The notes under the pieces were generated by a model that did not search any database, had not been told where the DNA came from, and worked only from the letters and a program-made list of their open reading frames with translations. A stretch of DNA of 61,332 nucleotides, counting the filler. It is 6 parts of 6 records of this genome, joined end to end, with 100 filler letters (N's around TTAATTAATTAA, not from the genome) between each part and the next. Parts side by side here need not be neighbours in the genome. Positions count along the whole stretch, not along the records: positions 37,834 to 61,332 come from SRR31156797_2696; 5 more parts are not named here. One strand, given 5' to 3'. Shown here piece after piece: positions 7,285 through 48,210 of the stretch. The first letter of the stretch is position 1. Each line of letters opens with the position of its first letter. A program made the translations under genes and the position numbers.

Positions 7285-9609
7285 ATGTCCCAAACAACAA
7301 ACAACATGGCCGCGTATATCTGGTCTTTGGCCGACCTGTTACGGGGTGATTTTAAACAGAGCCAGTATGGCCGTATAATCCTTCCCTTTACCCTTTTACG
7401 CCGTTTGGAAGGGGTATTGGAGCAAAGCAAAGCCGCTGTTCTGTCCAAACATAAAGAAATCCAAAATATGAATTTGCCCGAAGAGGCAGAGGAAAAAATG
7501 CTGCTGAGGGCAACCAACGGCCTGGCCTTTTTTAATATCTCTCAAATGGATCTGTCCAGGCTGGGGGAATCGGACATAAAGGACAATCTGGAATCCTATA
7601 TCCAGGGGTTTTCCAAGGATGCCAGGGAGATCTTTGAATATTTTAATTTCAGTGAATTTATCGGCCAGCTCAACGATGCCAACCTCTTATACATGGTGGT
7701 GCAAAAGGTCCGGAAAACAGACCTGAGCCCCAAGGCGGTTTCAAACCATGAAATGGGCCTGGTGTTTGAAGAGTTGATCCGAAGATTTGCCGAATCCTCC
7801 AATGAAACCGCAGGGGAGCACTTTACCCCGAGGGATATCGTACGGCTGACCACCTCCCTTGTTTTTATGGAAGATGACGATGCCCTGACAAAACCCGGTA
7901 TTATCCGGACCATTTATGATCCCACCGCCGGGACCGGCGGATTCCTTTCCTCCGGGATGGAATATGTCCATGAATTAAATCCCCAGGCCGTCATGCGGGC
8001 ATTCGGCCAGGAGTTAAACCCGGAAAGCTATGCCATCTGCAAAGGGGATATGCTGATCAAGGGCCAGGATATCACCAACATCAAATTGGGCAACACCCTG
8101 TCCCAGGATCAGCTTTACAGGGATAAATTCGATTATATGCTGTCAAATCCGCCCTTTGGTGTGGACTGGAAAAAAATTGAGGCTGTTGTCAAGGATGAGA
8201 ACACGTTGCAGGGCTATGACGGCCGGTTCGGGCCGGGCCTGCCCCGGGTGTCCGACGGCTCCCTCTTGTTTTTGCTGCATTTGATCAGCAAATTACGGGA
8301 CGCCTCGGAAGGGGGGGCAAGGATCGGCATTATTCTGAACGGATCTCCTCTGTTCACCGGTGGTGCAGGATCCGGGGAATCCGAGATCCGCAGGTATATT
8401 CTGGAAGCCGATCTTTTGGAAACCATTGTGGCCCTGCCCACGGACATGTTCTACAATACCGGTATTGCCACCTATGTCTGGATTTTATCCAATAAAAAAT
8501 CCAAGGAACGTTCGGGCAAGGTTCAGCTGATAAACGGGGTGAATCTTTATGGAAAGATGCGCAAGTCCCTGGGCTCCAAACGCAAGGTCATGGATGACAA
8601 AGACATTGCCGCCATCACCCGCTGCTATGGTAACTTTGAGGCCATTGATGCCCAAAAACTGGATAAACCCCCGGAAGAAAAAAGCAATCGCGGCCGGCAA
8701 TCTGAAAACCCGGTAAAGCAAACCCCTAAAACTTTCGGCAGCAAAATTTTTAATTACCATGAATTCGGCTACCGGAGGATCACCATTGAACGCCCCCTGC
8801 GTGAATCCTTCCAATTCAGCGATGAACGGATCGCAGAGCTGCGCTTTGCCCCCAGGCCCTTAAATGAACCAATGAAATGGATATTTTCAGAATATGGCCA
8901 TGCCTGGTCTGATTCGGATGATTGTGAATTTTACGGCATTTTGACCGGCCATGAAGAAAATATCCGCAAAACCATTAAAACGAAGTTTCCCAAGCTCAAA
9001 GAAAAACAGATCAAAACCCTGATGGATAAAAAGCTCTGGCTCACCCAGAAAACTATCATGCTCAAGGCAAAGGATCTCCGGCAGTCCATCGGCAAAGAGC
9101 AGTTTGATGACATGAACCTCTATCCCGGTTATATCAAGGCAACAGGGGTGCAGCTGGACGTCAAAGAGAAAAAACAGATCATTGCCGCCGTAAGCTGGAA
9201 AAACCCCGATGCACAAAAGGTCATTAAAAAGGTGAATAAAAAATCCGGCTCAAAGACAGTCCCCAACCCTGTCTACGGGGTGTTTGAAGTCGATGGAAAA
9301 CTCATTGAATACAAGCCCGACACAGAACTTAGGGATTATGAAAATGTCGCCCTTGATCCCTCCCGCCCGGTGAATGAGGTAAATGAAGCCTATTTTGCCA
9401 AAGAGGTCCTGCCCCACGTGCCCGAAGCCTGGATTGACCCGGGCAAAACAGATGCTAAGGACGGGGAAATCGGCATTGTGGGATATGAGATCCCCTTTAA
9501 CCGGCATTTTTATGTATACCAGCCCCCCCGGGATCTGGCGGAGATTGACGCGGATCTGGATAAGGTGAGCGCTGAGATTATGGCCTTGCTTGGTGAGGTG
9601 CGGTCTTGA
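7285..9609 (+). CDS. hsdM: Type I R-M methyltransferase subunit
   Basis: [40 protein letters not shown] (N6-adenine MTase), [11 protein letters not shown]. Confidence 0.95.
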
Positions 9610-10976
9610 TAGGTGGTGGATATCAGGCTTATCCTGAGTATCGGGATTCCGGGGTTGAGTGGATTCAAGAAATCCCTGAGCATTGGGATGGGGCTAAACT
9701 ACGTTGGATTGGGAGAATATACTCAGGAGGCACGCCTTCAAAAAAAATAGAAGGATACTGGAAAAATGGTACTATTCCGTGGTTGAATTCCGGGGCAGTC
9801 AATCAAAATAAAATAGGTGTCGCAAGTACGTATATAACTGAGATAGCACTAAAAAATAGTAGTGCGAAATGGATACCTGAAGGTGCACTTCTGGTAGCTC
9901 TAGCCGGGCAAGGAAAAACAAAGGGAATGGTAGCCCAACTTGCAATGAAAGCAACTTGTAACCAATCAATGGCTGCCATTTGCCCAACCATCAAAATAAA
10001 TGAAAGATATTTATATTGGTGGTTAAAATCAAATTATCAGAATATTAGAAATATGGCTGGAGGAGACCTTCGTGATGGATTAAATTTAGACCTTCTTGGT
10101 GATATAGGTTGCCCTTTACCAACCGATGTAGAAAAGCAAAAAATATCTGATTTTCTAGACCACGAAACCCAAAAAATAGACACCCTCATAGAAAAACAAC
10201 AACAGCTCATCAAACTGCTCAAAGAAAAACGGCAGGCCGTGATCAGCCATGCGGTTACCAAAGGGTTGAATCCTGATGTTCCCATGAAGGATTCCGGGGT
10301 TGAGTGGTTGGGGGATGTGCCTGAGCACTGGGATGTTGTTCGGTCAAAAGTTCTATTTAAAGAACGGCTCGGACGATCAATAGCAGGTAGCGAAGAACTT
10401 CTTACAGTTTCACATATCACAGGTGTAACAAAGAGGTCTGAAAAAGATGTAAATATGATTATGGCCGACTCATTGGTAGGCTATAAAATATGTGAAAAAA
10501 ATGATCTGGTAATCAATACTATGTGGGCCTGGATGGGAGCAATGGGATGTTCTTTTCAAAATGGAATTGTAAGCCCATCTTATAACATTTATCAAATACT
10601 CGACCAACAGAGATTAAATGCTCGCTTCATTGACCTTTTGGTTAGAACACCTGAATTCATATCAATTGCTACATCTCATTCAAAAGGGATATGGTCATCA
10701 CGACTTCGCTTATACCCTGAACCATTTTTTAATATTAAGTTTGCAATTCCCCCTTACAGAGAGCAGATTGATATAAAAAATCATATTGAATTTCAGACAG
10801 GGCTTTTTAGCAAAATTATTGATAAGTGTAAAAATTCTATCGGTTTATTGATGGAACGAAGAACAGCCCTAATCTCAGCAGCAGTAACCGGCAAAATAGA
10901 CGTCCGCAATTGGCAGCCACCGAAACAATCCAATCAATCAGATCAGGCTCCGGCAACCAAGGAAAATCCCTCATGA
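9606..10976 (+). CDS. hsdS: Type I R-M specificity subunit with two TRDs
   Basis: Conserved repeats [16 protein letters not shown] and [34 protein letters not shown]-terminal [13 protein letters not shown]. Confidence 0.95.
9644..10307 (+). repeat. 19-bp direct repeat GGATTCCGGGGTTGAGTGG at the start of each hsdS TRD
   Basis: Identical copies at 9644-9662 and 10289-10307. Confidence 0.85.
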
Positions 10977-13900
10977 ACTTCTACGGCGGTGATAAGGCAA
11001 AGGAATTCGTTTTTCAAAACGATATGATCGAGCAGCTGCTGGCCAATGGATGGCTGCTGGGAAACCCTGCAAATTACAACCGGGAACTGGCGCTTTATCC
11101 CCAAGATTTGCTGGGCTTTGTCCGGGATACCCAGGATAAGCAATGGGAAAAATTCTGCAAATTATATCCCAAGAATCCTGAACAAAAACTCCTGGAACGG
11201 GTGGCCTCCCAGCTCAATAAGGCAGATCCCAACGCAGCGGATTCCCGGATGCGCACCTTCGGCACCCTGGGGGTATTGCGCCATGAGCTTCGGGACCGGG
11301 GGACCCGGTTTAATCTATGCCAGTTTAAGCCGGAACATGGTTTAAATCCCCATACCCTGGTGCGGTATCAGAAAAACCGGCTGCGGGTGGTCCCGGAACT
11401 GGTGTACAGCCCCTGGGCCACCCAGGCGCATCTTGAAGAAACCGGGAAAAAGGCCAGGCGCTGGCGCATCGATCTGGTATTGTTTGTCAATGGGATCCCC
11501 GTGGCCACCCTGGAATTGAAATCGGAATTCAAACAGGTCGTGCACAATGCCATCAAACAATATAAAACCACCCGGCTGCCCGTGGATCCCGTCACCCGAA
11601 AGCCCGAGCCCCTGTTAACATTCAAGCGGGGGGCCCTGGTTCATTTTGCCGTGAGTCAGTATGAGGTATTCATGACCACCCGCCTTGCAGGGGGGGATAC
11701 CTTTTTTCTGCCCTTTAATAAAGGGACTATGGACGGCGGGGCGGGCAATGATGCGCCCGAAGATGTGAACCGGTATGCCACGGATTATCTGTGGAATGAG
11801 GTGTTGCTGCCGGAAAATCTATTGAACATTCTTGCCCGGTATGTGCATCTGCAGATTGAGGAAAAAGAGGACTGGGAAGGGCGTAAATTCAAGAAAGAAA
11901 CCATGATCTTTCCCCGTTACCATCAATGGGATGTGGTGAACAAACTGATCACGGCGGCCCGCAGGGAAGGGCCGGGGCATAAATATCTGATCCAGCACAG
12001 TGCAGGCTCAGGCAAGTCCAATTCCATTGCCTGGACCGCCCACCAATTATCCTCCCTCTATGACTCTTCCGGCAACAAGCAGTTCAACTCGGTGATTGTG
12101 ATTACCGACAGGACCGTGCTGGATGATCAGTTACAGGATACCATCTATCAGTTTGAGCATGTGCACGGGGTGGTGGGGCGGATCAATAAAAAGATAGGGG
12201 AGGGGTCAAAGTCCGAAAAACTGGCCGCTGCCCTGGAAAGCTCCCAGCCCATTATCATTGTAACGATTCAGACCTTTCCCCATGTGCTGCAGGCCATTGA
12301 AAATAATATCAGCTTAAAAGAACGACGCTATGCCGTCATCGCCGATGAAGCCCATTCTTCCCAGACCGGAACCACGGCCCGCAAGTTAAAAGAGGTGTTG
12401 ATGATCGACACCCCTTCAGGCGGGGATGAACCGCTTTCAACCGATGAGATTTTAGATGCGGTTGTGGAGTCCCGCCGGGGCTCACGCAATCTAAGCTACT
12501 TTGCCTTTACGGCAACACCGAAAACAAAAACCCTTGAACTTTTCGGCCGCCTGCCCGATCCCGGCCAGCCACCCTCTAAAAAGAATAAACCCGAGGCCTA
12601 CCATGTATACAGTATGCGCCAGGCCATTGAAGAGGGGTTTATCCTGGATGTATTAAAAAATTATACCAACTATAAGGTGGCCTATAACCTTGCCCTTAAA
12701 ATCCAGGGGGCCGACCAGGAAGTGGAGAGTAAAAAAGCCAAGGTAAAGCTCAACCAATGGGTACGGCTCCATGATTATAATATTTCCCAAAAGGTACAGG
12801 TGATTGTCGAGCATTTTAAGGACCGGGTCATGGGGCTGCTGGGCAACCAGGCCAAGGCCATGGTGGTGACAAGCTCCCGGAAAGAAGCGGTCCGGTATAA
12901 ATTGGGCTTTGACAATTATATCATTGAAAAAGGGTATCAAAATATCCGGGCCATGGTGGCCTTTTCCGGTGAGGTGGAATTTAAGGAGAATGATCCCAAT
13001 TCAGAGGGGCTGTTGGGAGAAAAGTTCATTGAAACCAATATGAACCCGGACCTTAAGGGCCGTGATATGCGAAAGGCCTTTGATTCAGGTGATTACCAGG
13101 TGATGATTGTTGCCAATAAATTCCAGACCGGTTTTGACCAGCCCAAGTTATGCGCCATGTATGTGGACAAAAAACTGGGGGGTGTGGAATGTGTGCAGAC
13201 CCTGTCCCGCATGAACCGGACCTATCCGGGCAAGGCTGACAGCGGTACCTTTATCCTGGATTTCTTCAATGATCCGGAAGATATTTTAAAATCCTTTAAA
13301 CCCTATTATCAAACAGCCGAGCTTGCCAATGTCTCTGATCCGGATCTGATTTTTGACCTGTTTGATAAATTGCGGGGTGCAGGTATCTTTTTATGGCATG
13401 AGGTCGAGCAGTTTTGCGAGGCGTTTTTTCAAAAGAGTAAGAGTAATGCCGCGATTGCCAATATTTGCAAGCCGGCTCTGGACCGGTGGAAAATCCGGTA
13501 TACATCTGCCATTGATGCCTATAAACAGGCCAGAGAATTGTTTGAACGGACTAAAAAAACAGCCGATGCCGTGCTTGTTGCCAATGCGGAAAACAGCTTT
13601 AAAGAGTGCAAAAAAGAAAAAGACCGTCTGGAAATATTCAAAAAGGATTTAGCCACATTTGTGCGCTTTTATGAATTCATGTCCCAGATTGTCGATTATG
13701 ATGACAAGGATTTGGAAAAACTGAGTTTATACGCCCGGAATCTGCGCCCCATGCTGCGTGAAGCCTTAATTAACGAGGATGATATCGATCTGAACAATGT
13801 GGTATTAAGTCATTATAGATTATCAGCCATTCGCCGGCAGGATCTGAAAATCAATGAGGATGCAGAAGGGTATCAGCTGGAACCGGGTGAAGGGCTGGGT

Positions 13901-14236
13901 TCCGCAAAGGCAAGAGAGGGTAAAGAAGAGTTCCTTTCACAGATTATCAGCCGGTTAAATGAGCTGTTTATCACGGATCAGCTGACCCAAAAAGACCTGG
14001 TAAACTATGCGTATACCATCAGAGATAAAGTCCGGGAAAATGAATCGGTGATGATACAGATTGCCAACAACACCACGGATCAGGCCATGCTGGGTGATTT
14101 TCCCAAAGCCATAGATGATGCCGTGATGGACAGCAGTACGGCCCATCAAAATCAAATGATGCAACTCTTGTCCGATCCGTCTAAGGCCAAAGGCTTTGCC
14201 AGGGTTGTTTTTGATTTATTGAAGCATGTGGCCTGA
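10973..14236 (+). CDS. hsdR: Type I R-M restriction subunit
   Basis: IDLVLFVNGIPVATLELK nuclease motif, QHSAGSGKS Walker A, DEAH box, FTATPK, TGFDQP. The ATG at 10973 overlaps the hsdS stop (ATGA) and is preferred to the TTG at 10910. Confidence 0.95.
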   Translation: MNFYGGDKAKEFVFQNDMIEQLLANGWLLGNPANYNRELALYPQDLLGFVRDTQDKQWEKFCKLYPKNPEQKLLERVASQLNKADPNAADSRMRTFGTLGVLRHELRDRGTRFNLCQFKPEHGLNPHTLVRYQKNRLRVVPELVYSPWATQAHLEETGKKARRWRIDLVLFVNGIPVATLELKSEFKQVVHNAIKQYKTTRLPVDPVTRKPEPLLTFKRGALVHFAVSQYEVFMTTRLAGGDTFFLPFNKGTMDGGAGNDAPEDVNRYATDYLWNEVLLPENLLNILARYVHLQIEEKEDWEGRKFKKETMIFPRYHQWDVVNKLITAARREGPGHKYLIQHSAGSGKSNSIAWTAHQLSSLYDSSGNKQFNSVIVITDRTVLDDQLQDTIYQFEHVHGVVGRINKKIGEGSKSEKLAAALESSQPIIIVTIQTFPHVLQAIENNISLKERRYAVIADEAHSSQTGTTARKLKEVLMIDTPSGGDEPLSTDEILDAVVESRRGSRNLSYFAFTATPKTKTLELFGRLPDPGQPPSKKNKPEAYHVYSMRQAIEEGFILDVLKNYTNYKVAYNLALKIQGADQEVESKKAKVKLNQWVRLHDYNISQKVQVIVEHFKDRVMGLLGNQAKAMVVTSSRKEAVRYKLGFDNYIIEKGYQNIRAMVAFSGEVEFKENDPNSEGLLGEKFIETNMNPDLKGRDMRKAFDSGDYQVMIVANKFQTGFDQPKLCAMYVDKKLGGVECVQTLSRMNRTYPGKADSGTFILDFFNDPEDILKSFKPYYQTAELANVSDPDLIFDLFDKLRGAGIFLWHEVEQFCEAFFQKSKSNAAIANICKPALDRWKIRYTSAIDAYKQARELFERTKKTADAVLVANAENSFKECKKEKDRLEIFKKDLATFVRFYEFMSQIVDYDDKDLEKLSLYARNLRPMLREALINEDDIDLNNVVLSHYRLSAIRRQDLKINEDAEGYQLEPGEGLGSAKAREGKEEFLSQIISRLNELFITDQLTQKDLVNYAYTIRDKVRENESVMIQIANNTTDQAMLGDFPKAIDDAVMDSSTAHQNQMMQLLSDPSKAKGFARVVFDLLKHVA

Positions 14237-36127: not shown

Positions 36128-37019
36128 TCCAGTTCTACAAGGTCACTTCTATATACTTTTAGCCACTGTTTTAATTGGTGGCTCTTTTATAGCTGTTGAA
36201 AACCTAGCAGGACTTATTGACCCTTTTTCACTTATTTTACTTAGATTTTTAGTGTCAGCTATCATCTTAGCTCCTTTTGTTTTAGTAAGTAAAAAAAATA
36301 GAGCTATGATAATACCTAGTTTAGGAAGAGGAGCTATCTTAAGCTCTTTTTATGCAGGCTTCTTTGTCTTGCAACTTATTGCACTAGAGACAACAACTGC
36401 TTTAAATACAGGGGCTTTATACACCCTAACTCCTTTACTAACAGCACTTCTTAGTATCTTTTTCTTTAAAGACAAAATTAGTCTAAGACAATATCTTATT
36501 TTCTTTGTAGCTGCTATTAGTACTTGTGGTGTTATTTTTAAAGGTAGTTTAGATTTACTTCTATCTTTTTCTTTAAACAATGGTGACCTTGTATTTTTTG
36601 CAAGTATGTTTTTGATGGCATTTTATTCAATCTTTTTAAAGACACTTCAAAGGGATGAAAAACCTATAGTAATGGTATTTTCTATTTTACTTGGTGGTTC
36701 ATTTTGGATGGCTATTATTTTACTAATATTTGACATACCTTTAAACTGGCACTTAGTAAAAGGAGAGTTTGCTATAAATATTGCTTACTTAATAGTTATG
36801 ACAACACTATTTACTCTATACCTTTACCAAAAAGCAACAACAGTTTTAAACCCAAAAATTATCATGTCATATACTTATATCAACCCTGCAGTGGTTGCTA
36901 TTTTAGTATCAGTTTTAAGTGATGTAAATCTTGGGTTTAAAGTTTGGTTCTTTATTGTGATTTCTTGTATGGTAACTGTGCTACTTCAATATATACTTCA
37001 TAAAGAGAAGAAAATCTAA
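36099..37019 (+). CDS. DMT/EamA family transporter
   Basis: About ten hydrophobic segments, LLRF, TTTALNTGALYTLTPL, YTYINP. Confidence 0.88.
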   Translation: MCKKPSKLNNPVLQGHFYILLATVLIGGSFIAVENLAGLIDPFSLILLRFLVSAIILAPFVLVSKKNRAMIIPSLGRGAILSSFYAGFFVLQLIALETTTALNTGALYTLTPLLTALLSIFFFKDKISLRQYLIFFVAAISTCGVIFKGSLDLLLSFSLNNGDLVFFASMFLMAFYSIFLKTLQRDEKPIVMVFSILLGGSFWMAIILLIFDIPLNWHLVKGEFAINIAYLIVMTTLFTLYLYQKATTVLNPKIIMSYTYINPAVVAILVSVLSDVNLGFKVWFFIVISCMVTVLLQYILHKEKKI

Positions 37020-37733
37020 GCTTCCTCTTCAAACTTTTGAACTAGCTTTTGTTTTCCAAACTCTACTCCTGGTTGGTTATAAACATTTATCATAAGCATT
37101 TGTCCAACACTTGAAGTTAGAAGTTCATAGTAAGCTATAAGTATCCCTATATTTTGAGCTGAGATTCTATCTAAAACTATCATATCAGCAGGAATCTCAT
37201 TTTCTAAGATTGTCTCATAGGTTGCATTGCACTCTTCATTTAGTAGTTCGTTAAAAGAGTGGTTGTTTATGTAGTCTGTTTTTTCTAAGTATTTTAGTTT
37301 TATATCTGGGATTTTGGCTCTTTTTTTAAAGTCCTCTACTTTTATAACTGTTACTGTTTTATCTTTTGGACCTTGTAAAATAAGCTGTAAAAAAGAGTGT
37401 TGGTCAACTGAACCTACAAGATGTACAGGTGTTAGCCCTACACTATTTCCTAGCATATCATGCTTACCTAAAGACTCACCCCAAAGTTGAACATACCATT
37501 GATTGAAATAAGTAAATAAAGAGGAGTAAGAAAATAAAACATTGATAGGATACTTCTTTGCAAGTTTAGAGTAAAAGTAGGCTTTTTTTAGTATTTTCTT
37601 CTCTTTAAATTCAAAGAAAGAGTTTATCAAACCTTTTGCTCCATCTAAAAGCTCTTTTACATCAATTCCAACTAAAGCTAAAGGCACAATTCCAACAGCA
37701 GATAAAACAGAAAATCTTCCACCTACATTTTTA
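37016..37733 (-). CDS. pgi: Glucose-6-phosphate isomerase (5'-truncated)
   Basis: NVGGRFSVLSAVG, QLWGESLGK, VDQHSFLQL, NQPGVEFGK. Confidence 0.93.
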
Positions 37734-37833
37734 NNNNNNNNNNNNNNNNNNNNNNNNNNNNNNNNNNNNNNNNNNNNTTAATTAATTAANNNNNNNNNNN
37801 NNNNNNNNNNNNNNNNNNNNNNNNNNNNNNNNN
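37734..37833. other. Artificial contig spacer
   Basis: N-run, TTAATTAATTAA, N-run. Confidence 0.97.
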
Positions 37834-38472
37834 AAAAACTTTATGCCAATGATGATGATTTAATCCAGCGTAGTGAAAGAATAAATTTTCAGCTGATATT
37901 CCTAGAAGCTCTGACTCTGATGAAGTATGACCAATTGGGACATTACAAAGTCCGACAACTTTTTCAAACTTTCCATACTTCATAACTGCTTCAGTGACCA
38001 TTCCTGATGGATTGGTAAAGTTTACAAGCCATGCATTAGGACAAAGTTCTTTCATGTCATTAACAATATCTAAGATAACCGGAACAGTTCTAAATGCTTT
38101 AAACATACCACCTGCTCCATTTGTTTCTTGTCCTATAACTCCATGACTTAGGGGAATTCTTTCATCTTTTATCCTTGCATCAAGTAATCCAACTCTAAAT
38201 TGAGTAGATACAAAGTCAGCATTTTTTAGAGCTTTTTTTCTATCAAGGGTCAAATAAATTTTCCAGTCAAGTCCAGCTTCTTTAACCATTCTTTTAGCTA
38301 AACTTCCAACAATTTCTAATTTCTCCTTTCCTTCTTCGATATCAACAAGCCAAATTTCATCAATAGGAAGTTCATCTTTTCTCTTTATATACCCTTCTAT
38401 TAATTCCGGTGTATAACTAGATCCTCCCCCAATAGTAACAATCTTAATTTTTTCTTTTCTTAGTAGATTCAA
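37834..38472 (-). CDS. celF: GH4 6-phospho-beta-glucosidase (3'-truncated)
   Basis: KIVTIGGGSSYTPEL, QFRVG, GQETNGAGG, NFTNPSG, GLCNVP; TTG start with GAAGGAGG upstream. Confidence 0.9.
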
Positions 38473-38496
38473 ATTAATTTCCTCCTTCAGTTATAA

Positions 38497-38564
38497 AAAA
38501 GACTTTTAAAAAGACTTTTAATAAGTTATAATAAAAATATAGCTGATAATTATTTAAAAGTCAA
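38497..38564 (-). promoter_or_regulatory. celF promoter with a tandem direct-repeat site
   Basis: Minus strand TTGACT (38559-38564), 17 bp, TATATT (38536-38541). Perfect tandem AAAAGACTTTTA x2 at 38497-38520. Confidence 0.6.
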
Positions 38565-38619
38565 GAAGTTTGAGAAAATTAATAGATGTAATACATGAAT
38601 TAAGTAAAAAAAAACTGTA

Positions 38620-38646
38620 AAGACTCCTTAAAAATAAAGGAGTCTT
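38620..38646. terminator. Hairpin downstream of the Rep_3-like gene
   Basis: AAGACTCCTT-7 nt-AAGGAGTCTT with a T-rich tract following on the minus strand. Confidence 0.6.
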
Positions 38647-38673
38647 AATGAAAAAAGAGAAAGAAGATATTTA

Positions 38674-39834
38674 TCAATATTTTGAAAGGTATATTTCAAT
38701 AATACTATTTTTTGCTCTATGAAATGTAACGTTAATATTGGCTTTATCATTTTCTAGAAAAGAAGATTCACCATCTTTTAAGAGATAAATTTTTTTATCA
38801 AAAGTTATCGATGACATATGTTCTTCTATTAAATGTTCTAAATTCATTTTATATAGAATTTTATTTAACTCCTCTTGAAGTTGATAAGCTTTTCTTACTT
38901 TGATTTCGAAAACATGATGATTTTTATTTTTTAAATTTTTCAGATATATGTTTTCTTTCAAAGCTTTGATGGCAAATTCATCGAAATTGTCAGAATAATT
39001 TGTTTTAGCAAATAGAATATTTTTTTTAACATAATCAAAATTGTGTTTTTTTAAATTATCTAATATTGCTTCATAAACGACATTAAAATCAATAATTGAA
39101 TCTTTAATTAAATTGATAATATCATTTGTAGAATTTTTCAAAATTTTCAAATTTTTATTAATATATTGAAATTTTATACCTGAAACTTTTGAAGACTTAA
39201 AGCAACCACATTTTTTCTTAAAGTATGTGATTTTGTATTTTGAAAAACAGTTTAAATCATTAATTATGGGAGTTATGACTTTTCTTTCAAAATCATAGAA
39301 TCTATCGTATGAATTTTCAACTTCTAACATTTTTTTTAGTTCATCTAAAGAAAACTCTATAGAACCTTCATCTTTTTTTGTTGCTAAAAGCTTCAAATAT
39401 ATTATTAGAGATAAAGAATACTTAAAATCAAAAATAGTTTTTAAGTTCACTTTGTTAAAAAAATTATTTTTATCAAAGGATAAAAGGACTTCTTTAGATA
39501 AGATGAATATTATTTTATTTTTTTGAATAAAGTATGAGTTTAGAATATTAAAAGCACCTTGATAAAGATTATTTTCATCATCTTTAAAAGAATAATAGAT
39601 TTTTAAGTTTAAAAATTTATCAAGATATTTAATTAATTCTTCATTACTGCTTAAGCAGAGAAGTTTTAGTAAGTTTTTTTCTTCTATCTCAAGAAAATAT
39701 TCTTTTTGTTTTGAATAATTTTCAAATAGATATCTAAAAAACAGTTTTTCGTTTTTACTAATTTTTTTTTTAGATGTAATAATGAAATCTCTAAAATTAT
39801 TTTCATAATCTGAATAATTTAAATTGAAAATCAA
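38674..39834 (-). CDS. Rep_3/RepB-like winged-helix protein in a chromosomal context
   Basis: FDFKYSLSLIIYLKL, IEFSLDELKKMLEVENSYDRFYDFERKVITPIINDLN...KITYFKKK...KVSGIKF (WH2 signature of Rep_3 initiators), plus a C-terminal extension of about 160 aa. Confidence 0.8.
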   Translation of the reverse strand: MIFNLNYSDYENNFRDFIITSKKKISKNEKLFFRYLFENYSKQKEYFLEIEEKNLLKLLCLSSNEELIKYLDKFLNLKIYYSFKDDENNLYQGAFNILNSYFIQKNKIIFILSKEVLLSFDKNNFFNKVNLKTIFDFKYSLSLIIYLKLLATKKDEGSIEFSLDELKKMLEVENSYDRFYDFERKVITPIINDLNCFSKYKITYFKKKCGCFKSSKVSGIKFQYINKNLKILKNSTNDIINLIKDSIIDFNVVYEAILDNLKKHNFDYVKKNILFAKTNYSDNFDEFAIKALKENIYLKNLKNKNHHVFEIKVRKAYQLQEELNKILYKMNLEHLIEEHMSSITFDKKIYLLKDGESSFLENDKANINVTFHRAKNSIIEIYLSKY

Positions 39835-42295: not shown

Positions 42296-43447
42296 ATGGT
42301 TTATTTCGCACTTTTCTTTTCAATGGCTTCTTATTATCCTCTTTTGGGAAAATACTATAAAGAATTAAGTTTTAGTGGTACTGAAATAGGTTTCCTATTC
42401 AGTACCGCGACCTTTGCAACTATGGTTTTTCAACCTATTTGGGGAATTATATGTGATAAAAGAGGAAAATGCAAGAATAGCTTTTTATTAATGCAACTGT
42501 CTGTGATTTTTATTGCACTAGCTATACCATTTATAAGAAATTATTGGATTCTACTGATAGCGATTGCTATGCACTTTTCTTTTCAATGTGGTCTTTTTCC
42601 TATATTAGATACAATTATATACAAAGATATTCATGACTTTGGTGAAATTAGGTTATGGGGATCACTGGGATTTTCTTTAATGGTTCTATTTTCAGGCAAA
42701 CTTTCAGAAATAATTGGTATAAATAATATGTTTTTTATATATTCTTTTACAACTATGATATCCTTAATAATTTCATTGAGAATTAATGAAGTTGAAATTG
42801 AGCAAAAAGAAAGTAATAAACTAGCTGTCTCTAAAGTATTAAAAGAACTATGTAGAAAAAATTATATTATTTTTTTATTTAGTGGCTTTCTTCTGATGGG
42901 GACTTTTATGACTGGTGGAGCATATTATTCTATACTTTTTGCAGAAAATGGCGGAAACATGACTGTCTTTGGAATTAGTTATTTTTTCATTGCAATTTCA
43001 GAAATTCCTTTTTTAAAATTTAGTAAGGCATTTATAAGAAAATATGGAACTGAAAGAGTTATTCTTTTTTCTGGTATTATCTTGCTTATGCGTTTTACTA
43101 TATACGCTATGTCAAAATCGTATATTACGTTACTAATATCATCTGTATTCATGGGGAGCTTTATTGGTTTAATATTACCTGCTATTGCAGATTATCTGAA
43201 AAATAAAATTAAAGATACTAATCGAGCGACAGCAGTAACCCTGTTTACTTCTATTAGTACAGGATTGGGACCTATGCTATTTCAGTTTTCTGGAGGAATC
43301 ATATATGAAAAATTAAGTTTATCAATACTATATTTCTTTTTATGTTGTGTAGTGATTATTGGAATAATTTCAACCATTTTTTTAATTGAAAGTAGTGAGC
43401 AGAAACATCATATACAAATTATTAAGGAGAAAAATGAGATTTATTAA
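42296..43447 (+). CDS. MFS transporter (LacY/MalA-like oligosaccharide:H+ symporter type)
   Basis: QPIWGIICD, FGEIRLWGSLGF, SEIPF; about 12 TM segments. Confidence 0.85.
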   Translation: MVYFALFFSMASYYPLLGKYYKELSFSGTEIGFLFSTATFATMVFQPIWGIICDKRGKCKNSFLLMQLSVIFIALAIPFIRNYWILLIAIAMHFSFQCGLFPILDTIIYKDIHDFGEIRLWGSLGFSLMVLFSGKLSEIIGINNMFFIYSFTTMISLIISLRINEVEIEQKESNKLAVSKVLKELCRKNYIIFLFSGFLLMGTFMTGGAYYSILFAENGGNMTVFGISYFFIAISEIPFLKFSKAFIRKYGTERVILFSGIILLMRFTIYAMSKSYITLLISSVFMGSFIGLILPAIADYLKNKIKDTNRATAVTLFTSISTGLGPMLFQFSGGIIYEKLSLSILYFFLCCVVIIGIISTIFLIESSEQKHHIQIIKEKNEIY

Positions 43448-43802
43448 AATTACAATTTGCTATTTCATAGCGGGATTTACAATAACGTTTTTTTGGGGAT
43501 TCTTTATTGAAAAATTTGGAAGCTTTGGTGGATGGGTTGCCGCTGTAACTCTGATTACTCCTATATGGTATCTAAATCATTATAAAAATATGGTTAAAAA
43601 TATGACTAATGCAGTATTTATAGATATGGGGCTTTCTATCGCGATAGCGAATATTACGGTATCGTATATAAAGAATCCAAAGATAAATTTTTTTTGTACC
43701 TTAGAACGCTCGCTCTTAACACTTTTATTTTTAGGGATTGGTTCTGTATTAGGAGGTTATTTTGCTTTTTATTTTGATAAGACTAGGGTTAGAAAAAAAT
43801 GA
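43434..43802 (+). CDS. Lin0368-like small membrane protein (putative glycerol transporter subunit family)
   Basis: GSFGGWVAA...PIWYLNHY...FIDMGL; ATG 43434 with AAGGAG upstream. Confidence 0.65.
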   Translation: MRFIKITICYFIAGFTITFFWGFFIEKFGSFGGWVAAVTLITPIWYLNHYKNMVKNMTNAVFIDMGLSIAIANITVSYIKNPKINFFCTLERSLLTLLFLGIGSVLGGYFAFYFDKTRVRKK

Positions 43803-44146
43803 TGAATTTTCAACATGCTTTATCAACACTTTTAGGAGGGTTATTTTTTGCTTTTTTTCTTCAGACGATTTGGGGAAGATTAGTAAATAAATTTGGAAGT
43901 ATCGGTGGTGTTCTTGCTGCTATGTTTATTCCCGGGACAATGTGGATTCTTAATCATGGAATTAATAATCAATTAATATTTCAATTTGGAAGTATTTGGA
44001 TTGATATGTCATGGGCTGCAGTAATTGGAGCAATAACTTTTACAAAATTATCGGGAAAAAGTATAAAAGAAGCTATTCCCAACATATTATCTGCTATTTT
44101 AGGGGGGATTTTGGCAGGTATATTTATTTGTTTCTTAGAGAAATAA
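43799..44146 (+). CDS. Second Lin0368-like small membrane protein
   Basis: WGRLVNKFGSIGG...GTMWILNHG...WIDMSWAA; overlaps its partner gene. Confidence 0.65.
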   Translation: MMNFQHALSTLLGGLFFAFFLQTIWGRLVNKFGSIGGVLAAMFIPGTMWILNHGINNQLIFQFGSIWIDMSWAAVIGAITFTKLSGKSIKEAIPNILSAILGGILAGIFICFLEK

Positions 44147-45038: not shown

Positions 45039-45281
45039 ATGATGGTTGGAACGATAGCGGCATGTCTTACTACCTTTTCATTTTTACCTCAGGTAGTTAA
45101 AGTAGTAAAAACAAAAGAAACAAAATCAATATCTTTTCTTATGTATTTAATGAGCAGTATAGGGATCTTTTTATGGACATTTCATGGATATATAATTAAA
45201 GATTCTGCATTATTTTATGCTAATGCTATTACATTTTGTATGGCATTAATTATATTAATTTATAAGATTAAATATAGATAG
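45039..45281 (+). CDS. SemiSWEET sugar transporter
   Basis: LTTFSFLPQ PQ-loop, TKSIS, LW..HG, AN; three TM helices. Confidence 0.9.
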   Translation: MMVGTIAACLTTFSFLPQVVKVVKTKETKSISFLMYLMSSIGIFLWTFHGYIIKDSALFYANAITFCMALIILIYKIKYR

Positions 45282-47030: not shown

Positions 47031-47223
47031 AATATATAGAAAATAAATGTTTCAAGAAAGTAAAAAAAGTCTACTTTTTATGTATGTATTGTATAGAGGG
47101 CTAATATCTTTAAATGTTCAATTTTTTGAAACTCTGTTTAGCTTGAAGCTTAATTTCAATACTAAACATATTGATAAAAGTTTAAAGATTATTTTCAGAT
47201 AAATTTGATTTTTTAGTGTAAAA

Positions 47224-47254
47224 AACTACTTTCTATAGCTTATAGAAAGTAGTT
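47224..47254. terminator. Bidirectional terminator between convergent units
   Basis: AACTACTTTCTATA-gct-TATAGAAAGTAGTT, a perfect 14-bp stem. Confidence 0.7.
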
Positions 47255-47297
47255 AAAATATTTAATATTAAAAGTTATTCACACAGAGTTAAAAAAC

Positions 47298-47513
47298 TTA
47301 TTGTTTATTGTAAAGAGTTAAAAAGTCACAAAAATCTTTAAATTTAAAGCTTTTTTGATTTTTAATATTATGATGAATTTTTAAAAAAAAGCAAACAGGA
47401 ATTTCATTATTTTTTAGATTATGTGAAATACATGGATCACACCCCAAATTATGATTGCTAGGATGAAGTTTGCAATTAAAATCTTTACAGCTACAAAAAT
47501 GTTTTGTTTTCAT
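47298..47513 (-). CDS. Small Cys/His-rich protein (DUF6485-like) under riboswitch control
   Basis: CSCKDFNCKLHPSNHNLGCDPCISHNLKNNEIPVCFF; AAGGAG SD; directly downstream of the ykkC riboswitch terminator. Confidence 0.75.
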   Translation of the reverse strand: MKTKHFCSCKDFNCKLHPSNHNLGCDPCISHNLKNNEIPVCFFLKIHHNIKNQKSFKFKDFCDFLTLYNKQ

Positions 47514-47546
47514 AGAAATCTCCTTTTATTTAATTTATAAAATAAT

Positions 47547-47582
47547 AAAAAGCCTGAGAGACATAATATCTCCCAGGCTTTT
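47547..47582 (-). terminator. Riboswitch expression-platform terminator
   Basis: Minus strand AAAAGCCTGGGAGA-tattatg-TCTCTCAGGCTTTT followed by a U-rich tract; the 5' arm is the 3' end of the aptamer. Confidence 0.85.
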
Positions 47583-47664
47583 ATCCTTCCGTGTACGCAG
47601 ATTTCTGCGCGTTTTCTCTTGGACCAAGACCAACACTATGCTGCGGAACCCTAGAAAACTTTTT
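47568..47664 (-). ncRNA. ykkC-yxkD (guanidine-I) riboswitch aptamer
   Basis: Minus strand AAAAGTTTTCTAGGGTTCCGC...TGGTCCAAGAGAAAAC GCGCAG-aaat-CTGCGT ACACGGAAGGATAAAAGCCTGGGAGA matches the ykkC consensus (CUAGGGUUCCG, GGUCCRAG, ACACGGxxGGAxAAAAGCCYGGGAG). Confidence 0.92.
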
Positions 47665-47674
47665 ATTATGACGT

Positions 47675-47703
47675 ATTATATATGGATTTTGTTTAATTGT
47701 AAA
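47675..47703 (-). promoter_or_regulatory. Sigma70 promoter of the riboswitch transcript
   Basis: TTTACA (47698-47703), 17 bp, TATAAT (47675-47680), about 10 nt upstream of the aptamer. Confidence 0.75.
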
Positions 47704-47759
47704 GTTTAAAATTTGTAACTACTCAGGCACAAAAAAATAGAAGATAATTTCTATCTTCC

Positions 47760-48210
47760 AATTTAAGGTAATTTAGATTTCTTACTTTTAGAAATTAAAG
47801 TATCATCAATACTTAAAAATATAGGTTCATTAGAAGAAAGTTAATTTTCAACTAACTTATTAGAGCTTAATTTTAATCTTTTATCAACTAATTCATCTTC
47901 ATCCCAAGGAGAGTTTGTTAAAAACCTAGACAAATTGCTCCTGTTTGTAGTGTTTAAAAAGTTTCTATTTAAGTTAGCAATATTCGTTTTACCTTCTAAA
48001 TTAATTAATCCAGAAATGAGATTCAATAAATGTTTTATTTGAGGTTTAGAAAAATTTAAGTTCAAATCAGAAATATAGTTGATTAAATCTTCAAAATGTT
48101 TTACAGATAGTCATTTAGTATCACCTTTTAGTTGTTAGATTTTGTCGGAAATAAATTTTACAACATTTTAAGCGTGATGCCTATTTTTTTGAAAAAACTC
48201 ACAAGTACAG
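47760..48210 (-). pseudogene. IS701-like DDE transposase remnant (N-terminal part only)
   Basis: FSKPQIKHLLNLISG...RSNLSRFLTNSPWDED...*LSSNEPIFLSIDDTLISK with an in-frame stop, a frameshift just after the ATG at 48114 and truncation after the first catalytic Asp. Possible end CTGTACTTGTGAG at 48198-48210. Confidence 0.75.

Follow-up and report, generated by a model that had tools for sequence, protein, structure and literature searches.

Guanidine riboswitches have, in the accounts given in PMC12186494 and PMC7266159, led to genes that take part in guanidine biology, namely those for exporters, carboxylases and hydrolases. The whole stretch of DNA analysed here (61,332 nucleotides (nt), hereafter the window) carries, at 47298–47703 on the minus strand, a Guanidine-I riboswitch followed by a single gene for a 71-amino-acid (aa), cysteine-rich protein of the Pfam family DUF6485, which raises the question of what such a protein does under guanidine control and whether it belongs there at all. 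On balance we favour the reading that guanidine induces this monocistronic cassette and that its product has an accessory or protective part in guanidine tolerance; it is probable that the guanidine response has recruited one branch of the DUF6485 family. An earlier interpretation of the locus, made from the letters alone (the first-pass annotation), had proposed either a new component of guanidine biology or a variant ligand, and is partly supported by the results below.

Architecture of the riboswitch cassette

The first-pass annotation had described a complete unit of promoter, ykkC aptamer, overlapping terminator, Shine–Dalgarno sequence, small open reading frame (ORF) and downstream terminator, and all of these parts were located on the minus strand of the window at the coordinates given, the promoter as a plausible site only. 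The aptamer, of the Guanidine-I class (ykkC subtype 1), occupies 47568–47665 (RF00442, 83.6 bits) and runs into an intrinsic terminator at 47538–47582, the expression platform, whose 5′ arm is the 3′ strand of the aptamer, AAAAGCCUGGGAG, and whose 16-pair stem (47582–47548) is followed by a T run. Folded alone, this terminator reaches −23.2 kcal/mol (z −6.45), and terminator-like sites in the region number 2 against the 0.2 expected by shuffling. Read on from there, the sequence has a Shine–Dalgarno element, AAGGAGA, at 47519–47525 (GGAG at 47523–47520), six bases 5′ of the ATG at 47513 that opens the 71-aa ORF; the gene (47298–47513) ends at 47298 and was assigned to DUF6485 (PF20095) by its Pfam match. 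The distance from the end of the aptamer to the start codon, 54 nt, lies inside the range of Clostridial Guanidine-I loci, and the junction between terminator and gene is clean, consisting of 35 nt with a good Shine–Dalgarno sequence and an ATG and no gene remnant.

Behind the gene, a second intrinsic terminator at 47218–47254, a 14-pair AT-rich hairpin (about 47254–47224) with a U run, closes the monocistronic unit. The region 47205–47300 (minus strand) folds at −19.7 kcal/mol (z −3.63); our pattern scan overlooked this terminator because its stem has few G–C pairs. With AAAAGCCUGGGAG shared between aptamer and terminator stem and a second terminator at the end, the monocistronic ON-switch design that had been proposed agrees with the layout of the unit. 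As for the promoter, TTTACA (−35) and TATAAT (−10) separated by a 17-nt spacer at 47675–47703 give 11 of 12 matches, the best of 8 promoter-like sites in this AT-rich region; 7.7 are expected from shuffles, so the sites are not enriched and this one is a plausible promoter only.

Pocket motifs and class of the aptamer

The Rfam match covers model positions 1–107 of 107, at 83.6 bits against a gathering score of 63 (E 1.9e-13), and Guanidine-I is the only Rfam family above threshold in the window; a permissive scan of 47450–47750 gave no rival family above 20.2 bits. For comparison we assembled 33 aptamers from a Clostridiaceae genome sample (148 genomes, 40 of them with a match over the cut-off and 53 such matches in all), one Ruminiclostridium genome and two plasmid records. 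The window aptamer is 73–84% identical to these, and a covariance model built from all 34 (R1) scores it at 106.2 bits. When plasmids were searched by megablast, the riboswitch stretch alone was matched, at 76–80% identity, on megaplasmids of Clostridium butyricum, C. estertheticum and C. felsineum; in the alignment, this homology spans aptamer and terminator and ends after the T tract, an aptamer-plus-terminator arrangement common to the window and its Clostridium homologues.

In the structure of Battaglia et al. 2017, as presented in PMC5340920, the guanidinium pocket is formed by the floor G of ACGG, an AG bulge and the GG of GGGAG, and the positions equivalent to G67 and A38 are pyrimidines in subtype 2. 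We mapped these residues by motif rather than by a residue-numbered alignment. The window pocket reads CCAAGAG and then ACACGGAAGGAUAAAAGCCUGGGAG, with the purine positions of subtype 1 all present, and 43 alignment columns are invariant in all 34 aptamers, among them ACGG, the AG of CCRAGAG and GGGAG. Helices P1/P1a/P2 and P3 have 98.1% of their pair cells paired in the 34-sequence alignment; both partners vary in 11 of the 25 pairs, and shifting the register gives nowhere near this support, a comparison that favours the proposed structure because the structure was derived from that alignment. The aptamers closest to that of the window (82–84% identity) precede SMR, ACT_7, B3_4 or radical SAM genes, the cargo typical of guanidine units. 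Judged by score and motifs, with ACGG and GGGAG intact, the aptamer is an ordinary member of the guanidine-sensing subtype-1 class, as had been claimed, and by analogy with that class the window leader would be read through in a ligand-dependent manner.

The product is a DUF6485 protein

The cysteine and histidine motifs that had been read in the ORF (CxC-x4-C-x2-H, C-x2-C and PxCFF) are present. Residues 1–66 of the protein align with profile positions 1–66 of 70 in PF20095 at 88.3 bits, against a cut-off of 24 (E 4.7e-25), and a hidden Markov model (HMM) built from the family alignment scores it at 91.6 bits. DUF6485 was the sole Pfam match at E up to 10, and the best NCBIfam match (E 0.049) was irrelevant; the cargo does fall outside the characterised guanidine genes, and the implication that it was an unplaced protein gives way to membership of a Pfam family. 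It matches that family at full length, is of similar length to other members and has all the invariant cysteines. In an alignment of 45 sequences C7, C9, C14, P18, C25, C28 and C41 never vary, and at least 90% of the sequences share P39, F42 and F61; every invariant family residue is retained in the window protein, which also has H17 and H22. From the six invariant cysteines and two common histidines, the protein is probably metal-binding.

When 1.84 billion cluster representatives were searched exhaustively by phmmer, 130 matched at E up to 1e-3, 19 of them at E up to 1e-10 and the best at 51% identity to the window protein; a word-indexed homologue search had returned no relative of the 71-aa protein. 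A homologue was also found in Fusobacterium sp. (WP_320612840.1), a truncated relative (P0049) is 76% identical, NCBI records label family members ‘DUF6485 family protein’, and in the ESM Atlas DUF6485 clusters were the only matches returned. With the 45-sequence alignment as input, AlphaFold2 predicted, with confidence, three short helices (pLDDT 91.6, pTM 0.76). At E up to 10 Foldseek matched this model to no PDB entry, searching PDB sequences with a profile gave no DUF6485 relative, and VIA-align against 48,161 chains gave a best Z of 2.4, a missing match that leaves a known metal-binding fold such as zinc ribbon, rubredoxin, ferredoxin or Zn2Cys6 possible. By its profile match, the protein is a regular member of a family that has been catalogued but not studied: our search found no publication naming DUF6485 or PF20095.

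The nearest relative is also riboswitch-led

Relatives of the gene were gathered as loci L001–L080, the best 80 of 257 relatives in species-representative genomes, and L115–L194, the best 80 of 314 relatives in metagenomes; both scans used one peptide pattern, and relatives without it fall outside the counts that follow. The first-pass annotation had proposed counting how often homologues of the ORF follow guanidine riboswitches, homologues that are never so placed being taken to mean that the original target gene had been lost. The R1 model found no Guanidine-I aptamer in L001–L060 and exactly one in L061–L080 and L115–L194 combined, at L115, whose protein is the best match to the window protein among all 160 loci (57% identity, 40 of 71 residues). 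The association is thus not absent, being found in the nearest relative, and it is not general either.

The L115 aptamer (929–1022 of that locus) was confirmed by Rfam as RF00442 at 88.8 bits. Its unit runs in the order promoter region, aptamer, overlapping terminator, ACT_7 gene, DUF6485 gene and terminator: a 129-aa protein with ACT_7 and A9CJY8-like_N domains is encoded at 1084–1473 and DUF6485 at 1501–1719, 27 nt later, with no terminator separating the two, and era, rpmB and mutS2 flank the unit. The window and L115 proteins are sisters in a 49-row tree (SH-aLRT 84.8) whose rows were hand-picked to represent the clades of the 161-row set.

Riboswitch-linked DUF6485 genes therefore number 2 in 161 loci, the window included, and the link is rare and limited to a small branch of the family. 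Guanidine-I elements occur at a density of about 0.36 per genome (53 in the 148 genomes of the Clostridiaceae sample), so that any given gene would follow one about once in ten thousand cases; at so low a rate, chance would not be expected to produce even a single shared origin in the 161 loci. By this rough estimate, the association of riboswitch and DUF6485 would exceed chance even with one origin.

Neighbours of DUF6485 genes and cargo of Clostridial Guanidine-I units

We surveyed the DUF6485 neighbours by running L001–L041 through Pfam and screening the remaining loci by seed-based jackhmmer. In 23 of the 160 loci an SMR gene lies directly 3′ of DUF6485 on the same strand, only a few bases away; in L045, which would be the 24th, the two genes are 2.6 kb apart, and this locus was left out of the count. 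All 23 fall within one clade of 37 rows (SH-aLRT 98) in the 161-row tree, and 9 come from species-representative genomes, mostly gut or rumen metagenome-assembled genomes of Gastranaerophilales type. These SMR proteins resemble Gdx: that of L048 has its best PDB match in 6wk5/6wk9 at 104.7 bits, against 55.8 for EmrE, and 6WK9 is Gdx-Clo according to the SMR review PMC9574504. The best NCBIfam match for the SMR neighbours is the SugE model, at 101–103 bits and below its cut-off of 126. In 19 loci a gene of the TIGR04076 family stands 5′ of DUF6485.

A conserved string of three genes, for a Cys-rich protein of the TIGR04076 family, then DUF6485, then an SMR protein like Gdx, recurs without a riboswitch in gut or rumen genomes of Gastranaerophilales type (L036, L044, L048, L050, L051, L057 and others); in some copies it is preceded by genes for a Crp-family regulator and a hybrid-cluster protein.

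The second recurrent partner is ACT_7, which adjoins DUF6485 in two loci, L115 and L126, in opposite gene orders. Among proteins of known structure it is related to Atu0741 (1zhv, 75 bits) and to CASTOR1, a sensor of arginine (60.5 bits).

On the metagenome contig of L126 (399–1059), DUF6485 precedes ACT_7, the reverse of L115, and the pair is without a riboswitch.

A third neighbour is tRNA-Arg(CCU): the 160 loci have 19 tRNA genes between them, and 13 of these are of this kind (L002–L005, L009, L013, L015, L026, L118, L119, L121, L123 and L127). Each of the 13 is within 400 nt of its DUF6485 gene, and no tRNA gene of another species was counted at that range; ten share the strand of DUF6485, directly precede it and belong to one clade, and three (L015, L026 and L127) are on the opposite strand. 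This adjacency may reflect conserved synteny or an integration hot spot, and we record it as a lead.

Among the loci examined no guanidine-degrading enzyme lies beside DUF6485. We dropped the idea that DUF6485 is a partner of a guanidine-controlled radical SAM protein, a radical SAM neighbour being found in 1 of the 160 loci (L028); in L001–L080, tblastn gave no match to the 230-aa radical SAM, B3_4 or ACT proteins of the Clostridium plasmid riboswitch units.

Seen from the riboswitch side, an SMR gene stands directly behind the aptamer in 20 of the 31 Guanidine-I loci of the Clostridiaceae sample (L084–L114), and ACT_7 is the first gene in 3 of those 31 and in the C. estertheticum plasmid locus.

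Several other patterns were seen in these units. Proteins of about 128 aa with ACT_7 and A9CJY8-like_N domains come first behind Guanidine-I in L082, L092, L095, L102 and L115. A B3_4-domain protein (about 235 aa), a 230-aa radical SAM protein or both are frequent in Clostridial units, with or without SMR (L081, L083, L099, L100, L103, L104, L107, L109, L110, L111 and L113). The guanidine papers searched gave no mention of B3_4, radical SAM or ACT_7 cargo, and their supplementary gene tables could list them. Half-size EamA-family membrane proteins (142–149 aa) come first in L101, L110 and L114 and may be another exporter type.

A proposed role in guanidine tolerance and its alternatives

Binding of guanidinium prevents termination in the Guanidine-I class, as described in PMC12186494 and PMC5340920. 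For the window unit we propose that, without ligand, the 3′ strand of the aptamer would pair into the terminator and transcription would halt before the gene; with guanidinium bound, the same strand would be held in helix P3 and the pocket, the terminator would be blocked and mRNA for the 71-aa protein would be made. The product would be a cytosolic, probably metal-binding DUF6485 protein that acts in tolerance or signalling and not in catabolism. We suggest an accessory role rather than that of a catabolic enzyme because, in the loci examined, relatives of the gene adjoin a Gdx-like exporter and a CASTOR1-like ACT protein and never guanidine-degrading enzymes.

Known units offer both likenesses and differences. 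The Guanidine-I–gdx units of Bacillota (such as ykkC–ykkCD of B. subtilis and the SMR units of Clostridium) have the same aptamer family, the same overlap of the aptamer 3′ arm with the terminator and the same ON logic, and are likewise short monocistronic or bicistronic cassettes; their cargo is a membrane exporter, whereas that of the window is a soluble 71-aa Cys-rich protein. In the Synechocystis gdmH operon, as described in PMC12186494, the genes under a Guanidine-I riboswitch are those for a guanidine hydrolase that depends on Ni and for two accessory proteins that deliver Ni. That operon is likewise a Guanidine-I transcript, and its small metal-handling helpers are a precedent for the idea of a metallochaperone; unlike it, the window unit has no hydrolase, importer or enzyme, and none of guanidine type was found elsewhere in the window. 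Other DUF6485 members occur in many unrelated contexts, in contrast to the riboswitch-led copies of the window and L115. The Guanidine-I-controlled ACT_7/A9CJY8-like proteins (relatives of Atu0741 and CASTOR1), recurrent first genes of Clostridial units and neighbours of DUF6485 in L115 and L126, belong to a different protein family and are absent from the window; the literature searched yielded no guanidine role for them.

What is new here is the pairing of riboswitch and DUF6485, the second instance of it in the nearest relative, and the convergence of neighbourhoods with Gdx-like and with ACT_7 genes. We found no paper on a link between DUF6485 and guanidine in that literature, whose supplementary gene tables, outside the search, might list these families. 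The riboswitch-led copy, the second one in its nearest relative and the coupling to a Gdx-like exporter make guanidine the first concrete, testable lead for the widespread DUF6485 family, and the same comparisons flag the ACT_7/CASTOR1-like proteins and the B3_4 and radical SAM pair as recurrent Clostridial guanidine cargo.

Several observations weigh against recruitment into the guanidine response. First, 159 of the 160 related DUF6485 loci are without a Guanidine-I riboswitch, full Rfam scans of L001–L060 gave zero riboswitches of any class, and none of the 34 Guanidine-I loci (L081–L114) yielded a DUF6485 ORF to the family HMM. Second, the riboswitch pairing of the window and L115 may have a single origin, and the 161-row tree, which is poorly resolved, puts the two as neighbouring branches in no supported clade. 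Third, because the Gdx-linked loci fall in one clade, the coupling of Gdx-like exporter and DUF6485 counts as about one evolutionary event; these operons are without a detectable riboswitch, and no riboswitch class was found before Gdx- or ACT-linked DUF6485 genes in 14 loci, even at E up to 0.1. Most neighbours of DUF6485 genes are, moreover, unrelated to guanidine (AKR–ferredoxin fusions, MutY, patatin, MFS, Mur-ligase-like proteins and nitroreductases), and it is the cysteine pattern that suggests metal binding. Last, the window has no homologue of SMR, ACT_7, TIGR04076 or radical SAM, and the DNA around the cassette is plastic, with a transposase remnant next to the unit.

A real but doubtful possibility is that a responsive riboswitch lost its original target, Gdx or ACT_7, and that DUF6485 landed downstream as passenger cargo with no guanidine role. 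The rarity of the pairing, whether counted from the relatives or from the 34 Guanidine-I loci, speaks for this, and so does the surrounding DNA: the transposase remnant (DDE_5 N-terminal, 440 nt, 47771–48210) lies 68 nt upstream of the promoter-like site, and a Rep_3 gene and truncated genes for phosphoglucose isomerase and a GH4 glycosidase are nearby. In L115, too, ACT_7 lies between riboswitch and DUF6485, so that deleting ACT_7 would yield the window layout. The clean junction of terminator, 35-nt spacer, Shine–Dalgarno sequence and ATG argues against such a landing, as does the nearest relative, which also lies within a Guanidine-I transcript, its ACT_7 and DUF6485 genes not being separated by a terminator. 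A passenger role also sits poorly with the separate clade that couples DUF6485 to a Gdx-like exporter without any riboswitch, and with a window gene that retains every invariant residue.

Recruitment of one branch, as favoured here, could be taken further. It is conceivable, and in our view rather unlikely, that DUF6485 is a dedicated component of guanidine and arginine homeostasis, a small metal-dependent adaptor or sensor working with ACT_7 and Gdx; the placement of tRNA-Arg(CCU) would then point beyond synteny to a link with arginine decoding or arginine-analogue stress, and the window cassette would be the module in its minimal form, under direct control of the guanidine riboswitch.

Decidedly less probable is that DUF6485 is a broad redox or metal (Zn or Fe–S) protein that came under guanidine control in a few lineages because guanidinium harms metalloproteins and extra copies protect them. 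With 130 clusters at 50% identity (E at most 1e-3) the family is broad, and its neighbours are variable and often of redox or Fe–S type, as this explanation would have it: 5 loci have AKR proteins with 4Fe–4S domains and 2 have MutY, and there are nitroreductases, a radical SAM/ferredoxin protein, and Crp with hybrid-cluster protein. The explanation does not account for the tight coupling to a Gdx-like exporter, with few-base gaps in 23 loci, the repeated adjacency of ACT_7 and the predominance of tRNA-Arg(CCU), 13 of 19 tRNA genes and all of them within 400 nt.

The variant ligand raised by the first-pass annotation, which would make the aptamer a ykkC relative sensing guanosine tetraphosphate (ppGpp), phosphoribosyl pyrophosphate (PRPP), a nucleoside diphosphate or another compound, has the unusual cargo in its favour, and ykkC-type aptamers have diverged to other ligands (as described in PMC7266159), yet it is very improbable, given a Guanidine-I score 20 bits over threshold, subtype-2 pyrimidine positions that read ACGG and AG here as in 33 of 33 comparison aptamers, and closest aptamers that precede cargo typical of guanidine units.

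Genomic setting of the cassette

The neighbours of the cassette are sugar-utilisation genes on the opposite strand. The transposase remnant was found at about 97% identity in two metatranscriptome runs of one study, with different flanks on both sides; these matches are confined to 47771–48210, and the riboswitch and the ORF lie outside them.

A Rep_3-type replication initiator is encoded at 38674–39834 on the minus strand, 8–10 kb from the cassette, beside truncated genes for phosphoglucose isomerase (223 aa) and a GH4 glycosidase (228 aa) within 37016–39834, a segment that looks plasmid- or chromid-like, with decaying genes. Related matches to the Rep_3 protein were weak (a Cetobacterium somerae chromid and a Thiothrix plasmid), DNA-level matches to the C. 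somerae chromid were at about 71% identity, and the two Cetobacterium chromids searched had no PF20095.

Across the window the GC content is stepped, at 44–50% over 1–15 kb, 33–38% over the glycogen genes at 15–24 kb and 25–31% over the rest; the step at 1–24000 could mark a foreign island or a chimeric assembly. Genes at 1–15 kb encode FAD oxidoreductases, an aminotransferase, Mrr and a type I restriction–modification system (hsdM/S/R, 7285–14236). Two tandem DUF6905 genes lie at 43386–44146, among sugar-transport genes upstream of a GH1 glucosidase, and an 80-aa SemiSWEET-like PQ-loop protein is encoded at 45039–45281.

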